Assembly (NCBI GenBank): GCA_043809245.1
Contig: JAZDDZ010000048.1
Span: 1-51,356 of the forward strand
Direction of reading: 5' to 3'
DNA from: Candidatus Iainarchaeum sp.
GTDB lineage: Archaea > Iainarchaeota > Iainarchaeia > Iainarchaeales > JAZDDZ01
Length of the DNA stretch: 51,356 nucleotides
The notes beneath the pieces were generated by a model. That model was not told the origin of the DNA. It worked only from the letters and a program-made list of their open reading frames with translations, and ran no database searches. Within the stretch, counting starts at the first letter, position 1. Each line of letters starts with the position of its first letter. Of the stretch, positions 5,403 through 51,356 are shown in pieces. Position numbers and translations under genes: made by a program.

Positions 5403-5430
5403 CGCACCGGAAATCCACTCTGTTCCGAAA
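5403..5430 (+). promoter_or_regulatory. Shared upstream motif, copy A (CGCACCGGAAATCCACTCTGTTCCGAAA), followed by TATA-like TTTAATTA
   Basis: Near-identical copies at 16503-16532(-), 29424-29449(+) and 30393-30420(+), each about 30-45 nt upstream of a start codon. Confidence 0.75.
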
Positions 5431-5474
5431 CCATTTAATTAAAAGAAAAAGCAATTGTTTCAGGAGGTGGGCAA

Positions 5475-5723
5475 ATGAATTCTCCGTTAAAGAAATTCAG
5501 CGCCGGCGCAATCCAGGTTGCGGTGTGGGAAAACAACGGCTCAGAGGGAAAGGTATTCCAATCAGTTTCAATTGACAGGCGATACAAGGACAAGAAAGGC
5601 GAATGGAAAAGCACTCACTCGTTAAAGCCAAGCGATGTCCCGAAAGCAATTGTTGCACTGCAGAAGGCATACGAGTTCGTTGTATTGAAGGAAACCGGCG
5701 CAGAAGTACAGATTGCAGAGTGA
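5475..5723 (+). CDS. Small PC4/Sub1-like putative ssDNA-binding protein
   Basis: IQVAVWEN...SVSIDRRYKDKKGEWKST..L pattern; strong SD GGAGGTG upstream. Confidence 0.65.
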   Translation: MNSPLKKFSAGAIQVAVWENNGSEGKVFQSVSIDRRYKDKKGEWKSTHSLKPSDVPKAIVALQKAYEFVVLKETGAEVQIAE

Positions 5724-15496: not shown

Positions 15497-16471
15497 TCAA
15501 AGGGTCTTTTCAACAGTTGCTCTCTTTATAACTTCATTAAATCTTTCCTTTTTATCCTGTGCATAACGCAATGAAAATTTCTCATTGCAAGAAATCACGT
15601 GATGAAATGTTGTCCTCAAGAATATTCTGTAGTTTGCAGTAAATGCCCCGTCTTTCCTGTGCCTACCGCCAGAATAGTTTTTGTAAATATTGCCGGTTGT
15701 TTGTACGCCTACGGACTTTAAAAGCGCCTCAACGCCTCTGAGGAAGCCCCTGTGCTCATCTTCAAGAAACTCAATCTTTGAAACTCCAATTGAAAGATCC
15801 GTGAAGCGATTATTGCCTCGGGAATCAGGCCGCCACCTTACAACTGAAACTTCTGATGCGAGGTAACCGTCAAGGAATGCAATGCTTGATTTTTCTGAAG
15901 CTTTGGAAATCCATTGCGGTAACAAGTAAGCAGCGGTTACCTTGTTTCCAACTGGCGCGCCCAAGGCTGCAAAAAATCTAACAACAGCCCTGTCATAGCA
16001 GCGAATATTGAAAGAGTGCCCGTATTCGCCTCCTTCGACAATCTGAGTTTTTCCCTCTGCAAAAGGGAAGACCCTTAGCAAATCCAAATGCCATAAGTCA
16101 ACATCCTTTTTATCTGAAGAAATGAATGCGACTGTGTTGAGCCTTACGTCTATTCCTCCATCGCCAAAAAGCACGCCAAGCATGTTTAAAACAATCTTGC
16201 AGTCCTTATGGCTTTCATAAAAAGGAAGCATGCCAGCAGAATTTAGCTTTTGAACTGCCTTCAACGGCAACGGAATGGCTTTCTTATCGCCCTTTGTATG
16301 CCACCATCTCGCCATTCCTTGTTTTACACCGAGAAGCTTGGCTGCCTTCTTATAGCCCATTGAAGGATTTTCTTCAATGAGTTTCAGATACTCAGAATAT
16401 TTCTTACAGGAAAACTGTTCTCTGGCAGAATACGTGTTGATTATGTCCTGTTCAGTTAGAATCGGCTCCAT
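15497..16471 (-). CDS. Free-standing LAGLIDADG homing endonuclease derived from Lon intein 1
   Basis: MLGVLFGDGG and FLDGYLASE; similar to the endonuclease part of IntN2 (FF.ALG.PVG.KV shared); lies between IntN1 and IntC1 in a different frame. Confidence 0.88.
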   Translation of the reverse strand: MEPILTEQDIINTYSAREQFSCKKYSEYLKLIEENPSMGYKKAAKLLGVKQGMARWWHTKGDKKAIPLPLKAVQKLNSAGMLPFYESHKDCKIVLNMLGVLFGDGGIDVRLNTVAFISSDKKDVDLWHLDLLRVFPFAEGKTQIVEGGEYGHSFNIRCYDRAVVRFFAALGAPVGNKVTAAYLLPQWISKASEKSSIAFLDGYLASEVSVVRWRPDSRGNNRFTDLSIGVSKIEFLEDEHRGFLRGVEALLKSVGVQTTGNIYKNYSGGRHRKDGAFTANYRIFLRTTFHHVISCNEKFSLRYAQDKKERFNEVIKRATVEKTL

Positions 16472-28674: not shown

Positions 28675-29409
28675 ATGCCGCAGAAAAGCCCTGATGAAAG
28701 GCTGCTCCTGCTTATCACTTCCAGATGTTCTGGGAAGTGCCCTGAATGCCTTTACAGGGAAAATCTTGGAAGGCAAGCAGACCTTTCTTTGAATGCCCTT
28801 GAAGAAAAAATTCTTCCTTTTATAGGCAGCCGCCATGAAATTCACATTGCTGGCGGAGAGCCCACCGAGCACCCGCAATTTTTTAAGATAATTGAATTGA
28901 TTGCGGGCAAAAACCCTGCTTTCATCCAGATAATTTCAAACGGCTTGCCTTTCAGCGGTTCAAAAAGGGATGCTTCGGCATTTGCTTTAAGGCTTCAATC
29001 AATAGCTGACAAATCGCCCACTAGGATTTTTGCGCGCTTCTCAATTGATGACATTCACGCAGAAGGCATAAAAGGGGGCAAGGGCGAACTCGCAAGGCGC
29101 GCAAAAATAATAAATGAAGTTTTCTCCAAAACGCGCGGAAAACTAGGATTCGGTTTTTACTCGCTTAAGGACAAAGGACAGAAGGAATCTGAAATTCTCA
29201 GGGCTTATGGCTTGCCCAGGAAGAGAACAATGTTTAGCCTGGGTGAAAGGGGCTTCAAACTTGGGGGGAATGAGCCAACCACTTTTATTTCAGCCGAAGG
29301 AAATGTTTACAGGCATGAACGCGAATTCCTAAGAAGGCAGGCGCCAATGGGAAACATAACCAGCCTGCCCTTGCAGGAAATACTGAAAAGGCGCTATACG
29401 CACAGGTAA
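28675..29409 (+). CDS. Radical SAM protein
   Basis: CSGKCPEC (CxxxCxxC), GGEP and SNG. Confidence 0.85.
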   Translation: MPQKSPDERLLLLITSRCSGKCPECLYRENLGRQADLSLNALEEKILPFIGSRHEIHIAGGEPTEHPQFFKIIELIAGKNPAFIQIISNGLPFSGSKRDASAFALRLQSIADKSPTRIFARFSIDDIHAEGIKGGKGELARRAKIINEVFSKTRGKLGFGFYSLKDKGQKESEILRAYGLPRKRTMFSLGERGFKLGGNEPTTFISAEGNVYRHEREFLRRQAPMGNITSLPLQEILKRRYTHR

Positions 29410-29423
29410 TGCAGCCATACAAC

Positions 29424-29449
29424 CGCAGCGGAAACGCACTGTCCCGAAA
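29424..29449 (+). promoter_or_regulatory. Shared upstream motif, copy C (CGCAGCGGAAACGCACTGTCCCGAAA), followed by CTTAATAT
   Basis: Matches copies A, B and D; upstream of the Bro-N gene. Confidence 0.72.
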
Positions 29450-29490
29450 CCTTAATATGCCTGAATAAGGCAAATCAATATGGTGGCGGA

Positions 29491-30333
29491 ATGGATTCGC
29501 ATAATGCGCTGGTTGTTTTTGAAGGGAAAAAAATCAGGAGAGTCTGGCATAACGAAGAATGGTTTTTCTCGGTTGTTGACATAATTGAGGCATTGACCGA
29601 TAGCCCTACGCCTCGCCAATATTGGGGCAAGATGAAGGGCAGGGATTTTTCACAACTTGAACTGTCCCCAATTTGGGTACAGTTGAAATTGCCTGCAGAT
29701 GATGGAAAACTCAGGTTTACAGACTGTGTGAACACCAAGAGCGCTTTCAGGATAATCCAGTCAATCCCTTCAAAAAAGGCAGAGCCATTCAAGCAATGGC
29801 TTGCAAAGGTAGGATATGAACGCGTGCAAGAGATTGAGAACCCCGAACTGGCACAGGAACGGATGAAGCGATTGTACGAGCAAAAAGGCTATTCCAAGGA
29901 ATGGATTGAGAAAAGGATTAGAGGCATTGCGGTAAGGCAGGAATTGACAGGCGAATGGAAAAACAGGGGCGCAAACCATAACGCGGAATTTGCCATCCTG
30001 ACTGACGAGATTTCGAAAGCAACGTTTGACAAGACAGTTGAAGAATACAAGCGGCATAAAAATCTTTCAAAAGAGAATCTCCGCGACCACATGGATGACT
30101 TGGAATTGATACTCACAATGTTGGGCGAGGCCACGACAACAAGGCTTACGCGTGAAAGGGATTCGCAAAAATTTCCCAGGCTGAAAAATGACGCAAAGGA
30201 CGGCGGGGAAGTTGCCGGGAGCACCAGGAAAAACATCGAGCAAAAGCTCGGAAAAAGCGTTGTTTCCGGCGACAACTATTTGGAAACTCCTGAGAAAAAG
30301 AAACGGCTGGAAAACCAAAAACAGATAAAATAA
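29491..30333 (+). CDS. Bro-N domain (phage antirepressor/DinD-like) DNA-binding protein
   Basis: FEGKKIRRVW...WFFSVVD, RIIQSIPSKKAEPFKQWLA and NLRDHM. Confidence 0.9.
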   Translation: MDSHNALVVFEGKKIRRVWHNEEWFFSVVDIIEALTDSPTPRQYWGKMKGRDFSQLELSPIWVQLKLPADDGKLRFTDCVNTKSAFRIIQSIPSKKAEPFKQWLAKVGYERVQEIENPELAQERMKRLYEQKGYSKEWIEKRIRGIAVRQELTGEWKNRGANHNAEFAILTDEISKATFDKTVEEYKRHKNLSKENLRDHMDDLELILTMLGEATTTRLTRERDSQKFPRLKNDAKDGGEVAGSTRKNIEQKLGKSVVSGDNYLETPEKKKRLENQKQIK

Positions 30334-30367
30334 AGAATTAACTGCGCATAAATGTATTCGTGGTTTA

Positions 30368-30424
30368 ATGCTAATCGGTGTCGTGGGAAAGCCGCAGCGG
30401 AAGTCTACTCTGTTCCGAAAGTGA
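30368..30424 (+). pseudogene. Relic 5' end of ychF (MLIGVVGKPQRKSTLFRK*)
   Basis: Manual translation aligns with the ILIGIVGRTNTGKTTFF start of downstream ychF, including similar upstream context GTGGTTT. Confidence 0.65.
30393..30420 (+). promoter_or_regulatory. Shared upstream motif, copy D (CGCAGCGGAAGTCTACTCTGTTCCGAAA), followed by GATATAT
   Basis: 25/28 identical to copy A; 32 nt upstream of the LAGLIDADG gene. Confidence 0.75.
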
Positions 30425-30452
30425 TATATCTGCAAAATTGCCAAAATGATTA

Positions 30453-31841
30453 ATGAACGAAGATTCGGTCCATATTTGGCAGTTCCCAAAAAATACTTCG
30501 ATATCGATAAGCCCTCTTTTTCTGGATTTCATTAATTCAAAAATCATTGAATCACAATTGAGCTTGAACCAAGTATATTCGGAAATGCGGCTTGATATGC
30601 CATTTAGCTCATTCAAGAGCTGTCTGAAAAAGTCGTACCCTAATTACAGGCCGCTTGACTTGATTTTGAACTTATGTAAAAAATTCGAAATAAGTTTTTA
30701 TGAATTGGAAAAAAATGTTTTGGCCTACAGGACCACAAAAAGCAGGATAATCGTGAGCCGCCCCGAGCTGCCCGTAACTGTTAGCCCGATTTTCAATATG
30801 CTAATGGCGCATCTGCTGGGGGATGGCGGATTGATAAGGTTTAAGCACAAGAAATCAATCTATTGCGCCTACACCCAATACGATAGCCAGTTCAGGAAAA
30901 ACTTCATATTTAAAGCAGAAAGAGTATTTGGCAAATTTGACTTCAAAATAGATTATGAGAAAAATAGGATAAAAGTATTTTTACCAGAAGTTGTGACAAA
31001 AATACTACTGTGCAGATATGGGTTAAAAGAGGAAGACCTGCTTTCGGACAGGGGCTTAATCCCATTGGATTTGGAAAATACTGAAAAGGACTCGCTGCTG
31101 GCCATTTTGGTTGCATTTATTATTGACGAGGGCCATGTAGATTCTGGGCAAATAGTAATTGGGTTAAAAAATCACGGATTAATTAAACAACTGGAAAAAA
31201 TATCAAATCTACTCGCCTATAAGAATTCAGTCACGCTCAGGAACGACAAGTACGGATTTGTTTATATTTTAAAAGAGGGGGTGAAAAAATTTTGGCAAGA
31301 CTACCTTGCTTTATGCAAAAGATATCCAGAAATTGGTTTAGGCTATAAAGGTCTCAAAATTCAGAAGTTTATTAATCGGACGGAAAAAATTTGGAAAAGC
31401 CAAGGTCAGAATGTAACAAGAAATAAGATAGTGGCATTACTAGACAAAAAAAATATGGCAATAAACGAAATAGCCGATGAACTTTTGATTTCAAGGCAAG
31501 GCATAAAATGGCAGCTAAAATGGCTGAAAGATGAAAATATAGTTTCAGTAAAAAAAGGCGCAAAAAACATGGATATTTATTGCCTTGAAAAGGCAGTAAA
31601 ATTTAAGGAATCTCCAAAAGGTAGAAGCAAACAAATTGGAGGAACAAAACGAAAAATACTCGAAATGCTGGCCAAAGGAAATTTTTCAACTACAAAATTA
31701 TCTGAATTAATCGAATTGCAAAGGGCCTCAACAATGAATCTCTTGAAAACAATGGAAGCTGACCGACAAATAAAGCGAATCGGCAGGGAATATAGCGGTG
31801 CACGACCCGCCATCATTTGGGCAATCCAAGCAAACCGTTAA
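30453..31841 (+). CDS. Free-standing LAGLIDADG homing endonuclease with two C-terminal winged-helix domains
   Basis: MAHLLGDGG and LVAFIIDEG motifs; ArsR-like INEIADELLISRQGIKWQL; visibly more AT-rich than neighbours. Confidence 0.8.
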   Translation: MNEDSVHIWQFPKNTSISISPLFLDFINSKIIESQLSLNQVYSEMRLDMPFSSFKSCLKKSYPNYRPLDLILNLCKKFEISFYELEKNVLAYRTTKSRIIVSRPELPVTVSPIFNMLMAHLLGDGGLIRFKHKKSIYCAYTQYDSQFRKNFIFKAERVFGKFDFKIDYEKNRIKVFLPEVVTKILLCRYGLKEEDLLSDRGLIPLDLENTEKDSLLAILVAFIIDEGHVDSGQIVIGLKNHGLIKQLEKISNLLAYKNSVTLRNDKYGFVYILKEGVKKFWQDYLALCKRYPEIGLGYKGLKIQKFINRTEKIWKSQGQNVTRNKIVALLDKKNMAINEIADELLISRQGIKWQLKWLKDENIVSVKKGAKNMDIYCLEKAVKFKESPKGRSKQIGGTKRKILEMLAKGNFSTTKLSELIELQRASTMNLLKTMEADRQIKRIGREYSGARPAIIWAIQANR

Positions 31842-31875
31842 TAACACTTTCAAAGAAAAAGTATTTGGTGGTTTT

Positions 31876-33060
31876 ATTCTCATTGGAATTGTTGGACGCA
31901 CTAACACCGGAAAAACTACCTTTTTCTCCGCAGCCACTCTGGTTGACGCGGAGATAGCCAACAGGCCGTTTGTCACAATTAAGCCTAACCAGGGAACTGC
32001 TTTTGTCACGGCAAAATGCCCGCATCTGGATTTGGGAAAGGAATGCAACCCTGTTAACAGCAAGTGCGTGAACGGCACAAGGCTTATCCCGATAACTTTG
32101 CTTGATGTTGCGGGATTGGTGCCGGATGCATGGAAAGGAAAAGGTTTGGGAAACCAGTTTTTGAATGACTTAATGCAGGCAAAGGCATTGATTCACGTTG
32201 TTGACGCAAGCGGAAGGACTGATGCGGAAGGAAACGCTACAAGCGGCTATGACCCCTGCAATGATGTAAGGTTTTTGGAGAAAGAGATAGCGGAGTGGAT
32301 TCGCGGAATACTGCAGAAAAACTGGCATGTGATAAGCAAAAAGGCTTCAATGGATGTGAAGGGGCCGGCGGAGGCACTGGCGCAGCAGTTAAGCGGTTTG
32401 GGTGTTTCAGTTGATGACGTGAAGGAGGTTTTGAAGAAAGGATTTGACTTGAAGCCAGAACATTGGGGGGAAGAGGAATTGCTTAAGTTCAGCGATGAAA
32501 TCAGGAGGAAAAGCAAGCCAATGCTTATAGTGGCAAACAAAATGGATGTGAACGGAGCAAAGGAAAACTTTGAAAAAATGAAGCGAGAGTTTCCCGAATA
32601 CAAAATCGTTGCGTGCTGCAGTGAAGCGGAACTGGCGTTAAGGAAGGCAGCAAAAAACGGGTTGTTAGAGTATTTGCCTGGTGAAAAGGATTTCAAGGTG
32701 TTGAAGGAATTGCCTGAAGTGCAGGCAAAGGCACTGGAGTTTTTGAAAAAAAACGTGCTGGAACAGTTTGAAAATACAGGAGTGCAGCAGGCAATCAATG
32801 CGGCTGCATTTGACTTGCTTGAATTGATTGCAGTTTATCCTGTACAGGACCAGCACAAGTGGATGAGCGGGCAGGGAAACATTTTGCCTGACACATTTCT
32901 TCTCAAAAAGGGAAGCAGCGCGCTTGAATTGGCTGGCGCGGTTCACACGGATTTCATTGAAAAATTCGTTTCCGCGGTTGACTGCCGCTCAGGGCAGAGA
33001 ATCGGAAAAGAGCATGCGCTGAAAAACGGCGATGTCGTGAAGATACAGCTGGGCCATTAA
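31876..33060 (+). CDS. ychF: YchF/Obg-like ATPase with TGS domain
   Basis: G1 GRTNTGKTT, PFVTIKPN, DVAGLV, GLGNQFL and NKMD; start probably ATT 31876 (track start GTG 31798 overlaps the endonuclease gene). Confidence 0.93.
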   Translation: MLIGIVGRTNTGKTTFFSAATLVDAEIANRPFVTIKPNQGTAFVTAKCPHLDLGKECNPVNSKCVNGTRLIPITLLDVAGLVPDAWKGKGLGNQFLNDLMQAKALIHVVDASGRTDAEGNATSGYDPCNDVRFLEKEIAEWIRGILQKNWHVISKKASMDVKGPAEALAQQLSGLGVSVDDVKEVLKKGFDLKPEHWGEEELLKFSDEIRRKSKPMLIVANKMDVNGAKENFEKMKREFPEYKIVACCSEAELALRKAAKNGLLEYLPGEKDFKVLKELPEVQAKALEFLKKNVLEQFENTGVQQAINAAAFDLLELIAVYPVQDQHKWMSGQGNILPDTFLLKKGSSALELAGAVHTDFIEKFVSAVDCRSGQRIGKEHALKNGDVVKIQLGH

Positions 33061-33076
33061 AAAATAATTCACTTTT

Positions 33077-33322
33077 TCATTGCGGGAACATTTCTTCTTT
33101 TGTTTCCGTGCTAAGCTTTTCCTCTTCTTTTTTGACCATTTGAACGATTTCCTGCAATTGCTGGTCTTTTGTTTTCAGGCGGTTTAAAGTGTAAAGGTAT
33201 GCGTTCACTATTGCGTCTAAGTCAAGCGAGCGCTTGAAGCCGTGGCGTGCGACTTCTTCAAAGTAAATTTCCACAAGCATTGCCGCAATCTCTTCGTCAG
33301 CCAGTTTGTTTTTTTCAGACAT
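33077..33322 (-). CDS. Small protein paralogous to the C-terminal domain of the upstream basic protein
   Basis: YFEEVARHGFKRSLDLDAIVNAYLYTLNRL versus YFRDIARLGFKRNLELDAIINAYLYALSRL. Confidence 0.85.
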   Translation of the reverse strand: MSEKNKLADEEIAAMLVEIYFEEVARHGFKRSLDLDAIVNAYLYTLNRLKTKDQQLQEIVQMVKKEEEKLSTETKEEMFPQ

Positions 33323-33333
33323 GAACTTTCCCC

Positions 33334-34236
33334 CTAAAAATGCGTTGAAGTGATTTTGTCTTTTTTCAGCGCTTCAAGGATTTCCCTTGACTCTATGCCT
33401 TTTCTTTTAAGCCTTGAAAGAGCGTAAAGGTAAGCGTTGATTATCGCGTCTAACTCCAGGTTTCTTTTGAAGCCAAGGCGCGCTATGTCCCTGAAGTAAA
33501 GCCTTGTGAGCTTTAATGCGGATTCCTCATCTGAATGCCCTGGAAAATCAATCGGCGCGTCAAATGAAACGGGAACAGAAACCTGTGTGGAAGAAATCTC
33601 TGACTTGATTGTGTTCTGAATCATGCTCCTCAAAGAGCTGAAGTCAACCGCTGGCGCGGCAGCTTTCCTCACAATTCGCCTGACGGCTTTCTTGATTGCG
33701 CGCTTTCTGCGCCTGCTTGTTCTTTTTTTCACGCGCTTTCTTTTAGTGGGCTTTTTAATTTTCCTTTTTTTAGGGTTCTTCTTTTTCCTTTTTACAACAA
33801 TTTTTTTGACAATCTTTGGCCTGACAATTCTCCTGATGACTTTTTTAACAACAACCCTTCTTCGCAGTTTTCCGCCGCTTTTCATAAAGCGCTGCTGCAT
33901 TTTCCAGAGCTTTACCGCCTGCTTGAATGTCTTGCCTGCCTGAAGCTGCCTTCTCATGAACAGATTGTATTCGCTTAACTGCTTTTTTTTCGTGCCCTTT
34001 TTCCTTAAAGTTGAAAGGTTTTCCTTCAAAGCGGCGAATTCCTTTGAAAGCGTTTTCGCCTTTGACTCGATTCTGGCAGACCTGCGTTTCTCTTTTCGAA
34101 TGCTCTTCTTTACCCCTTTAATCTCTTTTTTCTCCTTTGATTCAATTCGCGCAGACCTCTTTTTTTCCTTGCGCAGGCTTTTCTTCACGCCCTTCAGTTC
34201 CCTTTTCATGGTTTTCGAAATTTTTGCCTTTGCCAT
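33334..34236 (-). CDS. Extremely Lys/Arg-rich protein with HMG/YABBY-like motif
   Basis: Basic low-complexity tracts; LSEYNLFMRRQL..GKTFKQAVKLWK. Confidence 0.75.
   Translation of the reverse strand: MAKAKISKTMKRELKGVKKSLRKEKKRSARIESKEKKEIKGVKKSIRKEKRRSARIESKAKTLSKEFAALKENLSTLRKKGTKKKQLSEYNLFMRRQLQAGKTFKQAVKLWKMQQRFMKSGGKLRRRVVVKKVIRRIVRPKIVKKIVVKRKKKNPKKRKIKKPTKRKRVKKRTSRRRKRAIKKAVRRIVRKAAAPAVDFSSLRSMIQNTIKSEISSTQVSVPVSFDAPIDFPGHSDEESALKLTRLYFRDIARLGFKRNLELDAIINAYLYALSRLKRKGIESREILEALKKDKITSTHF
34060..34200 (-). repeat. Intragenic tandem repeat, 25-aa (75-nt) period, two copies
   Basis: ELKGVKKSLRKEKKRSARIESK versus EIKGVKKSIRKEKRRSARIESK. Confidence 0.9.
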
Positions 34237-48801: not shown

Positions 48802-51356
48802 ATGAATTCACGTCTTTCAATTGCTTTACTGTTAACTCTTTCAATTTTCGTTCTGGCTTTTGCCGCGAACGCTTTAGCCGACACAAATTTGTGCTACACT
48901 AATTGCACTGGAAAACTGGGGGATGTGTCAGGCAATGGATACATCGATTCACAGGACGCAGAGATCATACTCAACATGTCCGCAGGAATAACCACCCCAA
49001 CCGCATGCGCTGACCTAAGCAAAGACTGCTTGGTTAACAGCGGAGACGCAATACTGGCGCAGCAGGCAATAGCGCCATACACCACTGCAACATGCACCAG
49101 CACGTCAATTAAAGGAGATGTAAGCGGAGACGGGCAGGTAACAGAAAGGGACGCTGCAACAATTCTGGCGATTTCAGTCGGAACACTTGCAAAGCCATCA
49201 AACATATGCTGCGCAGATATAAGCGGAGACGGAACAATAAATTCCGGGGACGGCATTCTGGCGCTGCAGATAGTGGCTGGAACAAGAATTGCGGAGCGAT
49301 GCAACCAGGATTACTGCAAGGATTCAGACAGCGGACTGAGTTATTACATAAAAGGAACCACGACATGGGGGGCTTCAAGCGGTGCTGAAGGCAGTTCAAC
49401 GGATTACTGTTCAGGCCCTGATTATTTAGTGGAATCATACTGCAGTGTAAATAACTTTAAGCAAGCTGAATACAAGTGCGCCAATGGGTGCAAGGACGGG
49501 GCATGCGTATGCCCTAAACCTTACCATGGAATTTCGCCTGACGGAAGATGCGTTTGGTCTTGCAGTGAAGGCACAACCCCTGACACTGCAAGCAATGAAT
49601 GCATCTGCAAGGAAGGATATGTTGAAACTGGAACAGACCAGTTTGGAAGGAGGGTCTGCACTTTACAGGGTAACGCTCCATGCACTGAAACAGACGGCGG
49701 AAGAAATGAATTTGTTAAAGGAACGCTTACAGGCGGCAGTTATGGCACAGTAGGCTATAACCACGGCCCATTCACGGATTACTGCAACACCAACTATGCG
49801 CCAAAACAATTGATAGAATATTTTTGCGCAAACACGGTTACAGTGCAATTCAACTTAATAGAATGCGCTAACGGCTGCACAGACGGAGCATGCATTGCCG
49901 ATACAAACACAAGCAAATGCACAGATTCAGATAATGGAAAAAATTATTACACTAAAGGAAAAACAACAGGAACAGAATGGGCAACAACGAACTATGTGGA
50001 AAAAAACGATTACTGCATAACCGAAGGGGAAAAAGCAGGCTTATTGGCAGAATACTTCTGCCACGAATTAAACAACCAAGTAGCCTCAGAAAGCTACAAG
50101 TGCCCGAACGGATGCAAAGACGGGGCATGCATTGCTGACACAAACATTGCCTGCAGGCAAAACAGCGACTGCGGAACTCCCGCTACGAAAACATATTGTT
50201 CAGTTGGGACACCGTGCTCCAAAGAAACCTACAACGAAGGCCAGACAATAAGCGGATTAAAGGGAACAGGCTCCATGGCTGGAAAAGAGCTTACTGCTAA
50301 ATTAGTGCAAATAACCCTTGCAAGTAGCGGAGCGATTTACAATGCAACACTATCGCTTTACGACGGGCAGACAAAAATCGGCACGGAAACCTCAACTGCG
50401 GGAACAGACTTGTCAAAAATATTCCTGGATTCAGGCGGCGACTATGTTCTCTCAACCAGCCTGAAAATCAACACGATTGCAATTGCGGCAACAACATCAA
50501 TAGGATACATTGAAGTAACCAAAGGCACTTGCACAGCAGGGTCTGCATGCAAGGAGACAACAACACCAATATGCAGCAATCCTGGAACAACACAGTCATC
50601 GTGCACAAGCACTAGCTCGGGCGCATGCCAAAGCTGCCCTTACGGCTGCAATAACGGCGCGTGCATTGATTCAAAGCCAGTGTGCGGCAACGGGGTGTGC
50701 GAAAGCGGAGAAACACAAAACAACTGCCCACAGGACTGCGGAGCAGTTGCATGCAAGCAGGACAGCGACTGCGGAACAGCGACAACAAAAAAATATTGTT
50801 CCGGAAATGCGGCGTGCGTTGAATCAAGCAAGCCACTGTGCTATTATGCTGGAACCACAAAAGCCTACTGCACAAGCATTGGCTCAGGGGGATGCGCTAT
50901 CTGCCAGAACGGCTGTGACAACGGTGAATGCCTGCCGGGCGCCTGCACCACGCAATGGGATCCGGTTTGCTGCGTTGACGGAAAAACCTATTCAAACGAA
51001 TGCACTGCAAAAACCAGCGGCTGCAAAGGAATAGCCTATGAAGGAGAATGCAAGCAAGCGTGCATTTGCACTGCACAGTACGCGCCAGTGTGCGGAGTTG
51101 ACGGAAAAACATACCCTAATTCCTGTGAAGCAAGGTGCGCAAACACGCCTGTTTCATATGAAGGTGAATGCAGGGAAACGCCCATAGTTGAATGCAAGAA
51201 AAGCGTTTACTCACTGGGGGCTAAGTGCGAGGAAGCGAACAGTGAAAAATGCACAGGATACCCTGAAAGAAAATGCGTTAAGATAAGCTGCACTGACGGC
51301 TACACCTATGATTCCTGCACGCAGAATTACTGCCCAATAATTGAATGCAAAACATA
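48802..51356 (+). CDS. Large Cys-rich secreted protein (3'-truncated by window): two dockerin-like domains, CxDSDxG repeats, two Kazal domains
   Basis: Manual translation from ATG 48802 is open to the window end: MNSRLSIALLL signal, GDVSGNGYIDSQDA, GDVSGDGQVTERDA, CKDSDSG/CTETDGG/CTDSDNG, CTTQWDPVCCVDGKTYSNEC, CTAQYAPVCGVDGKTYPNSC. Missing from the ORF track because it has no stop codon. Confidence 0.88.
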   Translation, partial: MNSRLSIALLLTLSIFVLAFAANALADTNLCYTNCTGKLGDVSGNGYIDSQDAEIILNMSAGITTPTACADLSKDCLVNSGDAILAQQAIAPYTTATCTSTSIKGDVSGDGQVTERDAATILAISVGTLAKPSNICCADISGDGTINSGDGILALQIVAGTRIAERCNQDYCKDSDSGLSYYIKGTTTWGASSGAEGSSTDYCSGPDYLVESYCSVNNFKQAEYKCANGCKDGACVCPKPYHGISPDGRCVWSCSEGTTPDTASNECICKEGYVETGTDQFGRRVCTLQGNAPCTETDGGRNEFVKGTLTGGSYGTVGYNHGPFTDYCNTNYAPKQLIEYFCANTVTVQFNLIECANGCTDGACIADTNTSKCTDSDNGKNYYTKGKTTGTEWATTNYVEKNDYCITEGEKAGLLAEYFCHELNNQVASESYKCPNGCKDGACIADTNIACRQNSDCGTPATKTYCSVGTPCSKETYNEGQTISGLKGTGSMAGKELTAKLVQITLASSGAIYNATLSLYDGQTKIGTETSTAGTDLSKIFLDSGGDYVLSTSLKINTIAIAATTSIGYIEVTKGTCTAGSACKETTTPICSNPGTTQSSCTSTSSGACQSCPYGCNNGACIDSKPVCGNGVCESGETQNNCPQDCGAVACKQDSDCGTATTKKYCSGNAACVESSKPLCYYAGTTKAYCTSIGSGGCAICQNGCDNGECLPGACTTQWDPVCCVDGKTYSNECTAKTSGCKGIAYEGECKQACICTAQYAPVCGVDGKTYPNSCEARCANTPVSYEGECRETPIVECKKSVYSLGAKCEEANSEKCTGYPERKCVKISCTDGYTYDSCTQNYCPIIECKT

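Follow-up and report, generated by a model that had tools for sequence, protein, structure and literature searches.

Organization of the ychF locus

The 51,356-nt contig JAZDDZ010000048.1 of Candidatus Iainarchaeum sp. (assembly GCA_043809245.1), analysed over its full length and referred to here as the window, carries a ychF gene whose first codons are present twice, once on each side of a gene for a free-standing LAGLIDADG endonuclease-like protein. The segment from 30395 to 31902, whose length of 1508 nt equals the spacing of the two copies, is probably a homing cassette that sits on the first codons of ychF and has neither an intron nor an intein. The features of the locus are listed below.

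29491-30333 (+): gene for a Bro-N domain protein of 280 aa (Pfam E 1.4e-8)
30334-30367 (+): presumed native ychF promoter and 5' leader, 34 nt of intergenic sequence 3' of the Bro-N gene
30368-30394 (+): stranded ychF start (the remnant), ATG plus 8 codons, MLIGVVGKP (profile E 5.6e-5; equivalents in 16 other loci)
30395-30430 (+): left end of the cassette, a putative promoter made of a repeated motif of the CGGAA-N10-TTCCG type (30395-30422) and a TATA-like box (30423-30430)
30453-31841 (+): gene for the 462-aa free-standing LAGLIDADG endonuclease-like protein, assigned from fold, family alignment and composition
31798-31800 (+): GTG, the sole canonical in-frame start upstream of ychF, adding 26 residues and giving a 44-nt overlap with the endonuclease open reading frame (ORF)
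31842-31875 (+): 34-nt spacer with leader-like sequence and a Shine-Dalgarno sequence, GGTGG (31867-31871)
31876-31902 (+): putative cassette-borne replacement of the ychF 5' end, ATT plus 8 codons (ILIGIVGRT), right end of the cassette
31903-33060 (+): rest of ychF, from NTGKTTFF to the stop (Pfam; relatives 67-68% identical)

An earlier note on this DNA had described a stranded ychF start, a promoter motif, a LAGLIDADG gene and a restarted ychF, and all of these were found. The upstream peptide, the endonuclease and ychF are read in three discontinuous frames, and the endonuclease has its own start and stop in its own frame. The remnant reads ATG CTA ATC GGT GTC GTG GGA AAG CCG and its frame closes at TGA 30422-30424; its ninth codon, CCG, may already be part of the promoter motif. 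The native leader bears a weakened Shine-Dalgarno sequence, CGTGG, 4 nt before ATG 30368, and about 16 of 21 positions are alike (aligned by eye) between it and the leader of the functional ychF copy.

In the functional copy, ILIGIVGRTNTGKTTFF is encoded at 31876-31926 and continues into a full YchF that ends at 33060. The product is an Obg-like ATPase of the YGR210 type with P-loop GTPase, G4-motif and TGS domains (Pfam), and its closest relatives are 67-68% identical over 99-100% of the length; their names place the contig with DPANN archaea of the Iainarchaeota/Diapherotrites kind. The 119 YchF relatives listed have 318 to 413 residues, mostly 387 to 401. In 116 of them the P-loop lies near the N-terminus, as in M-x-I-G-x-V-G-K-[PT]-N.

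The stranded ychF start

A nine-position profile was derived from the N-termini of these 116 YchF relatives. Of all 2446 six-frame peptides in the window, the remnant peptide scored best (E 5.6e-5, 20.2 bits), and the next-best match had an E-value of 6.7. The functional copy (ILIGIVGRT) scored poorly on the same profile (E 6.7) because M, K and P/T are missing from it. A loose YchF N-terminus pattern gave one match in the window and none in 200 shuffles. At the DNA level, a direct repeat of 32 nt with 72% identity links 30357-30388 to 31865-31896 at a spacing of 1508 nt, but it is no better than many chance repeats of the same region. The significance of the upstream peptide therefore rests on the protein profile and on comparative data, not on the DNA repeat.

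The profile, together with the repeated motif at 30395-30422, bears out the proposal that MLIGVVGKP is a YchF start directly abutting a shared promoter motif. An extension of the remnant homology up to codon 16 (QRKSTLF, with a one-codon deletion) was considered and rejected, since those 28 nt are the repeated promoter motif. Because the same 28 nt recur at three other sites of the window and in a homologous locus, L025, the remnant comprises 8-9 codons, the length given in the earlier note.

Homologous loci in DPANN genomes

A genome scan with the family alignment of the endonuclease yielded 39 loci, in assemblies labelled Iain-, Woese-, Pace-, Nano-, Aenigm- and Micrarchaeota. Linkage of the endonuclease to ychF, on which the earlier proposal hinged, was found at the ychF 5' end in 39 of 39 loci. 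The ychF gene is directly adjacent in 38 of them (tblastn), and the 39th, L026, shows the first ychF codons before the contig ends. Thirty loci are arranged in tandem; in the other nine, which are divergent, the 5' ends of both genes point towards one another. The endonuclease is always located at the ychF 5' end. An in-frame ychF start is present in 26 of the tandem loci, at a stop-to-start distance of -23 to +8 nt.

A start-plus-7-codon pattern matched 40 times in the 408,556 nt of the 39 loci (both strands). Of these matches, 23 are genuine starts of ychF and 16 are remnants, separated from ychF by the endonuclease gene; the remaining one lies elsewhere. Remnants are present in 15 of the 30 tandem loci, just upstream of the endonuclease, and in one of the nine divergent loci (L004), just past the endonuclease 3' end and on the ychF strand. 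Locus L031 has a partial remnant (nhmmer E 8e-4), and L001, with only 68 nt of upstream sequence, was kept outside the remnant count. The remnants read M-L-I-G-[LIV]-V-G-K(-P). Next come about 7 nt of spacer, a B recognition element (BRE)/TATA-like box and, about 25 nt on, the endonuclease start. Upstream of the remnant ATG, nothing is conserved except a TATA-like box near -27, a position as expected for an old leaderless ychF promoter.

The insertion point at GK(P)|N and the carried replacement 5' end, both proposed from the window alone, were thereby recovered as a layout. Since remnants of 8-9 codons occur in 16 other loci, the insertion point and the carried-5'-end architecture are a property of the family and not an accident of the window. 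Over 24 nt in 14 loci, the remnants are 63% identical to their own functional copy and 65% identical to the copies of other loci; being no closer to their own copy than to those of others, they did not arise by recent local duplication. One well-supported clade of the endonuclease tree has 17 members, of which 15 bear a remnant (the partial one of L031 included), and the bearers outside this clade are L039, L004 and the window. Flank synteny was only mildly informative: genes downstream of ychF are common to at most 8 loci, and no gene upstream of the cassette is common to more than 4.

Another conserved upstream motif, CACTGGACA, lies about 30-90 nt upstream of the endonuclease start in L009, L012, L017, L021, L023, L026, L027 and L029, about 12-25 nt before a TATA-like box. 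Its core, TGGAC, is also present in many remnants (ATT GGA CTT), and the motif may be a decayed remnant retained for DNA binding. No tRNA gene that could serve as an integration target was found adjacent to the conserved upstream motifs in 11 loci or in the window.

In six divergent loci (L003, L004, L006, L007, L008 and L011), the 50-180 nt between the two starts hold a conserved ychF leader. On the ychF strand it consists of a TATA-like box, AGGTGTTTTCCGA and the ATG, and it stands back-to-back with the TATA box of the endonuclease, so that the cassette seems to supply the ychF promoter too in these loci.

The endonuclease protein

The 462-aa protein comprises an N-terminal domain (residues ~1-100), a double LAGLIDADG core (~105-300) and two winged helices (~320-378 and ~397-458). 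Family members have one or two such ArsR-like winged helices. Its LAGLIDADG motifs are LLGDGG and IIDEGH. In the alignment of 37 family sequences, D124 (in LLGDGG) and E226 (in IIDEGH) are at least 90% conserved and D225 is invariant. An AlphaFold2 model (pLDDT 90.1) has helices at 112-123 and 212-226, each followed by beta hairpins. Foldseek matches of this model, with overall E-values from 2e-7 to 1e-4 and TM scores by target of 0.6-0.71, included the Tli VMA intein endonuclease (1.9e-7), the PI-TkoII-type structure 2cw7 (1.1e-6), PI-PfuI (3.9e-6) and I-DmoI (about 7e-5, TM by target up to 0.71). Structures of WhiA were also among the matches (8dy9_I, 4.3e-5; 3hyi, 8.8e-5). Atlas structure matches reached TM scores of 0.76-0.89.

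By sequence families, the window protein matches only HTH_5 (ArsR-type winged helices) in Pfam, and no LAGLIDADG family even at E<=10. PF14528 (LAGLIDADG_3) was matched by 20 of the 37 family members at E<=0.1, with a best E-value of 1.2e-5, and the family profile retrieved PI-PfuI from the PDB sequences at E 0.005. As judged from the model and the family alignment, the protein has a double-motif LAGLIDADG fold in which both catalytic acidic residues are kept, and it presumably cleaves DNA.

The endonuclease has 38 relatives in a set of 5.8 billion proteins, in which YchF has at least 6726. With a wider profile, the number of cluster representatives was 126 at 1e-30 and rose to 464 at 1e-10 and to 1157 at 1e-3. 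Distant full-length relatives (P0185-P0300) show an identical domain order in about 370-400 aa, with E-values from 1e-28 to 1e-63; such relatives would be missed by the peptide pattern of the genome scan. No match to the endonuclease was obtained by tblastn in 50,697 phage and 72,556 plasmid records.

The promoter motif at the left end

Copies of the 28-nt motif at 30395-30422 (+) are located at 5405-5432 (+) and 16530-16501 (-), with a weaker one at 29426-29451 (+). One more copy lies upstream of the endonuclease homologue in locus L025 (5930-5954). The motif is an imperfect inverted repeat, CGGAA-N10-TTCCG, that ends in CCGAAA and stands directly 5' of TATA-like boxes. Both the endonuclease gene and the gene at 15497-16471 have it at -60 to -31 from the ATG, followed by the TATA-like box. 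The genes found 3' of the motif copies are a small ORF starting at 5476, the gene at 15497-16471 (no Pfam match), the Bro-N gene and the endonuclease. A search of the exact promoter string that allowed for at most 3 mismatches yielded 7 matches where 11.8 were expected, and the motif came out with a different core.

Folding of the motif was no better than that of shuffles (z from -0.06 to -1.12); a protein-binding inverted repeat is therefore more likely than a hairpin. The motif looks like the operator of a small regulon. The endonuclease ATG is located 22 nt past the TATA-like box at 30423-30430, a distance that makes a leaderless or near-leaderless endonuclease mRNA likely.

The 5' end of the functional ychF

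The entry for the window ychF in the protein collection (P0001) has 420 aa and starts at GTG 31798. A canonical Shine-Dalgarno sequence, GGTGG, is also present 4 nt before the ATT, which occupies the canonical start position, and the gene at 48802 shows the identical geometry, GGTGG-TTTA-ATG. Three cases are conceivable: initiation at ATT, use of GTG 31798 as the start, or an impaired ychF. The 34-nt spacer between the endonuclease and ychF, with its native-like leader, is unique to the window among the tandem loci.

The two 5' ends in the window differ at 8 of 9 third codon positions, at 3 first positions and at 1 second position. G or C occupies the third position in 2 of 9 codons of the substitute and in 6 of 9 codons of the remnant. 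When the substitute is taken over 17 codons, the count is 6 of 17, a value reached by 3% of the windows of the ychF body; codons 10-17 are possibly resident.

Other loci have unusual ychF heads. In L020 (4964-5003), L025 (7140-7180), L026 (7146-7175) and L034 (7155-7194), a head of the form M-x-I-G-L-[VL] is out of frame with the rest of ychF. These four loci belong to one endonuclease sub-clade and all read (G/C)TT C GGC AAR CC, with an extra C before the Gly codon of the P-loop. The zero frame closes 4-5 codons on, and a downstream ORF of about 390 codons is open wherever the contig is readable. The extra-C site, CUU/GUU CGG C, which includes the Arg codon CGG, resembles +1 frameshift sites; in yeast Ty1, CUU AGG C is such a site. 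P0150 is a protein of this group in which the endonuclease frame runs into YchF, resulting in a 768-aa call. It was also examined as a fused or intein-containing ancestor, and this was rejected: its length is in the normal range, it belongs to the frameshift group and no intein blocks are visible. The extra-C alleles are either translated by a programmed +1 shift or as a fusion, or they are a set of damaged genes.

Composition and sequence divergence

The endonuclease ORF has a GC content of 36.8%, compared with 44.5% for the contig and a mean of 44.4% (standard deviation 2.1) for contig stretches of its length. It is the lowest 1389-nt stretch of the contig, with the minimum at 30401, and 0.6% of equal-length contig windows are as GC-poor. 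At third codon positions the GC content of the endonuclease gene is 0.40, compared with 0.52 for the Bro-N gene and 0.54 for ychF from codon 18 onward. Of 703 locus pairs, 78 have a higher identity in the endonuclease than in YchF (68% versus 54% for L020 and L037), although YchF is the slower protein. The excess is greater than 0.08 in 10 of 666 pairs.

Neighbouring genes

The Bro-N gene upstream of the remnant (29491-30333, +) encodes a domain common in genes of phages and mobile elements, and has a host-like GC content of 45.4%. Downstream of ychF there are two adjacent genes on the reverse strand, at 33077-33322 (81 aa) and 33334-34236 (a Lys/Arg-rich product of 300 aa). Their products share a C-terminal segment of about 45 residues (...GFKR-L-LDAI-NAYLY-L-RLK...), and neither has a Pfam match.

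Proposed mechanism

Taken together, the layout and its recurrence, the linkage to ychF, the conserved catalytic residues, the composition and the absence of splicing signals (see below) suggest that the 30395-31902 segment is a LAGLIDADG homing cassette. Such a cassette would bring its own promoter, an endonuclease extended by winged helices, a leader with a ribosome-binding site, and a substitute start with 8 codons. Judging from the architecture common to other loci, 31876-31902 would have arrived together with the endonuclease. The enzyme would recognise the P-loop-coding sequence of endonuclease-free ychF alleles and cut near codons 8-10. The break would be repaired from a cassette-bearing allele, which would copy the cassette in. 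The native promoter, the start and the first 8-9 codons would be left stranded upstream, and ychF would receive a new head, different in DNA at nearly every silent position, that may be immune to the enzyme and would be expressed from ATT or from GTG 31798. Where upstream flanks differ, the remnant may act as a short left homology arm.

The interpretation given in the earlier note is thus supported in part, namely for the ychF linkage, the insertion point, the carried 5' end and the lack of splicing. It had also called the new head recoded and cleavage-immune; a heavy divergence at third positions is expected of any two distant alleles, so this term need not mean that immunity was selected.

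A broader proposal, which is put forward tentatively, is that these loci represent an undescribed class of homing element of DPANN archaea, a 'gene re-heading cassette' that would enter a conserved gene at its first codons with neither intron nor intein. Under this proposal the stranded start would be kept both as a left homology arm and as an uncleavable mimic of the target for self-repression. The head variants (ATT, and the extra C that needs a +1 shift) would be the price or the means of immunity. The distant relatives (1157 representatives at E<=1e-3) may re-head other genes. If true, this would account for the odd ychF starts and gene calls of DPANN genomes (N-terminal extensions, fusions and frameshifts), and the specificity of a LAGLIDADG enzyme could be read off naturally occurring target, remnant and immune sequences. 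The compact LAGLIDADG and winged-helix scaffold could possibly be useful in engineering.

Several observations weigh against a homing cassette. The promoter motif at its left end is common to three host-side sites of the contig, so that this end does not look foreign. Low GC is common to endonuclease genes of any age. No co-conversion gradient was detected in YchF: the first 40 columns gave a partial r of -0.001 with total YchF identity controlled, in a test whose other bins scatter uninformatively from -0.24 to +0.26. The hallmark of homing is the presence of alleles with and without the element at one site, and the DNA-level comparison covers endonuclease-bearing loci. The carried ychF copy opens with ATT 31876 and has no canonical start codon there; if ychF is untranslated, the cassette would have damaged rather than rescued the gene. 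Moreover, 14 assessable tandem loci and 8 divergent loci have no remnant, or a partial one only (L031), and eight of the remnant-less tandem loci have CACTGGACA instead. Finally, identity across loci is higher among the remnants (77%) than among the functional 5' ends (60%, with two rows mis-registered), which could point to a function at the DNA level, such as an operator, rather than to host-derived scars. Under the homing mechanism this conservation may be read in two ways: only alleles recognisable by the enzyme were invaded, or the enzyme binds the remnant as an operator.

Alternative explanations

A spliced gene, with the nine upstream codons as its real first exon and RNA or protein splicing as the link to NTGKTTFF, would make sense of two facts: MLIGVVGKP plus NTGKTTFF gives the canonical YchF N-terminus, and the upstream copy holds the ATG that the downstream copy lacks. 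The earlier note had named an RNA-spliced intron as its less likely alternative, and this was not borne out. An Rfam scan of 29400-33200 at E<=10 gave four noise matches and no group I or group II intron; the best intron match scored 14.8 bits against a cut-off of 32 and was located elsewhere in ychF. A bulge-helix-bulge scan returned 6 relaxed candidates, at chance level (shuffle mean 4.1), none of them at the junctions, and the duplex energy between the junction regions was average, again at chance level. No Hint or intein family was matched in Pfam, the upstream frame closes after 18 codons, and the endonuclease and ychF are in different frames. Longer intein-type or fused relatives (810-2310 aa) were searched and none was found, which is weak evidence. 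The description of the element as intron-less and intein-less accordingly agrees with the lack of group I, group II, bulge-helix-bulge and intein signals around the ORF. Since the downstream ychF has its own start and a complete N-terminus in 26 other tandem loci, no splicing is needed, and a spliced gene is very improbable. Just as improbable is a local rearrangement or an assembly artefact, in which the ychF 5' end was duplicated in tandem, or the contig is chimeric, and an unrelated gene happens to be flanked. The window is a single metagenome-type contig and the direct repeat is weak in DNA (72% over 32 nt), but the three-part layout is found in 16 independently assembled loci, and a difference at 8 of 9 third positions is a poor fit to a recent duplication.

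The alternative that deserves most attention, while still being unlikely, is that the protein is a domesticated and immobile LAGLIDADG and winged-helix regulator or partner of ychF, comparable to WhiA, and that the 8-codon element is its operator and not a scar. The synteny of 39 out of 39 loci across several DPANN phyla, in tandem or divergent layouts like those of a regulator and its target, speaks for such a regulator, and the tight, often overlapping stop/start coupling with ychF and the winged-helix domains would fit it as well. WhiA structures are among the fold matches (8dy9_I and 3hyi), the remnants are more conserved than the functional 5' ends, and the spacer before the BRE/TATA box has a fixed length and a variable sequence. 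In the available part of PMC2988022, intron endonucleases of T4 are described as binding homing-site-like operators that overlap their own promoters. Against this, both catalytic acidic residues are at least 90% conserved and the distribution is sporadic and patchy (38 relatives versus thousands of YchF), unlike the lost catalytic residues and the vertical inheritance of a WhiA-like regulator. Endonuclease identity lies above YchF identity in 78 of 703 pairs, the endonuclease gene is the lowest-GC stretch of the contig, and the conservation of the remnant begins exactly at the ATG and tracks codon structure, as in a former coding sequence. Autorepression and homing are compatible, and part of the regulator explanation may hold beside the homing cassette.

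Comparison with known systems

On the usual view, a homing endonuclease inside essential coding sequence requires an intron or an intein, and otherwise stays between genes. Fungal mitochondrial ORFs that carry a spare 3' gene end are a known exception, which has so far seemed an organelle curiosity. A search of the literature, supplements aside, gave no prior account of a LAGLIDADG endonuclease at YchF, nor of such a DPANN element, among the listed matches.

The ychF-linked enzyme resembles I-DmoI, PI-PfuI, the Tli VMA endonuclease and PI-SceI in its double-motif fold, with an acidic residue ending each motif helix. I-DmoI and the intein enzymes sit in archaeal rRNA introns or in inteins, whereas the ychF-linked enzyme has no splicing partner; unlike them, it is also extended by an additional N-terminal domain, about 100 residues long, and by one or two winged helices at the C-terminus. 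With WhiA it shares a LAGLIDADG core followed by a helix-turn-helix DNA-binding domain. WhiA has lost the catalytic acidic residues. It is a bacterial protein of vertical inheritance, whereas the ychF-linked family is patchy and keeps these residues.

In T4-like phages, the Seg and Mob endonucleases belong to the GIY-YIG or HNH families. As the available text of PMC2988022 describes them, they lie between genes and their cleavage sites are hundreds to thousands of bp away from where they are inserted. According to the same excerpt, such genes are presumed to spread in intronless homing when the break is repaired and flanking markers are co-converted, and I-TevI of T4 binds a mimic of its homing site over its own promoter. 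Compared with what is described there, the ychF cassette is similar in having an endonuclease gene beside a conserved gene with no intron or intein, and differs in its insertion inside coding sequence, in its LAGLIDADG family and in the remnant that marks the insertion point. In mobE of the nrdA gene of Aeromonas phage Aeh1 ('genes in pieces') and in the split-intein 'fractured genes', the host protein is made as two polypeptides that assemble or are joined by split inteins. To the extent that the accessible sections of PMC3045599 and PMC2677866 allow a comparison, the likeness is a free-standing endonuclease in a conserved gene without an intron or a contiguous intein; the difference is that the 9-codon ychF fragment is too short for such a role and the downstream gene is whole.

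The closest parallel is with the fungal mitochondrial mORFs. In Allomyces macrogynus (atp6) and Glomus (atp6, atp9, cox2 and nad3), a LAGLIDADG or GIY-YIG ORF brings a foreign 3' gene end, as stated in the portion of PMC3630166 available to us, in which Allomyces atp6 is cited as the first case. The same portion gives the duplicates as 64-81% identical in DNA and near-identical in protein, with the native C-terminus stranded downstream. The window shows a layout of this type: a displaced native end, an endonuclease ORF, and a substitute copy that is continuous with ychF. As with the mORFs described there, a free-standing endonuclease lies inside a coding gene together with a substitute for the displaced end, and the native duplicate is left behind. 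Unlike those mORFs, the ychF cassette replaces the 5' end, so that it has to bring signals for translation initiation as well, and the parts left stranded upstream are the old promoter and start. It further differs from them, as far as that source describes them, in its location on an archaeal chromosome, in the winged-helix extensions of its enzyme, and in its use of one target gene across many lineages. Seen in this light, the ychF cassette would be the mirror image of the fungal mORF, placed at the 5' end and served by an enzyme family dedicated to one gene. If true, terminus replacement would be a general third route by which homing endonucleases enter genes.

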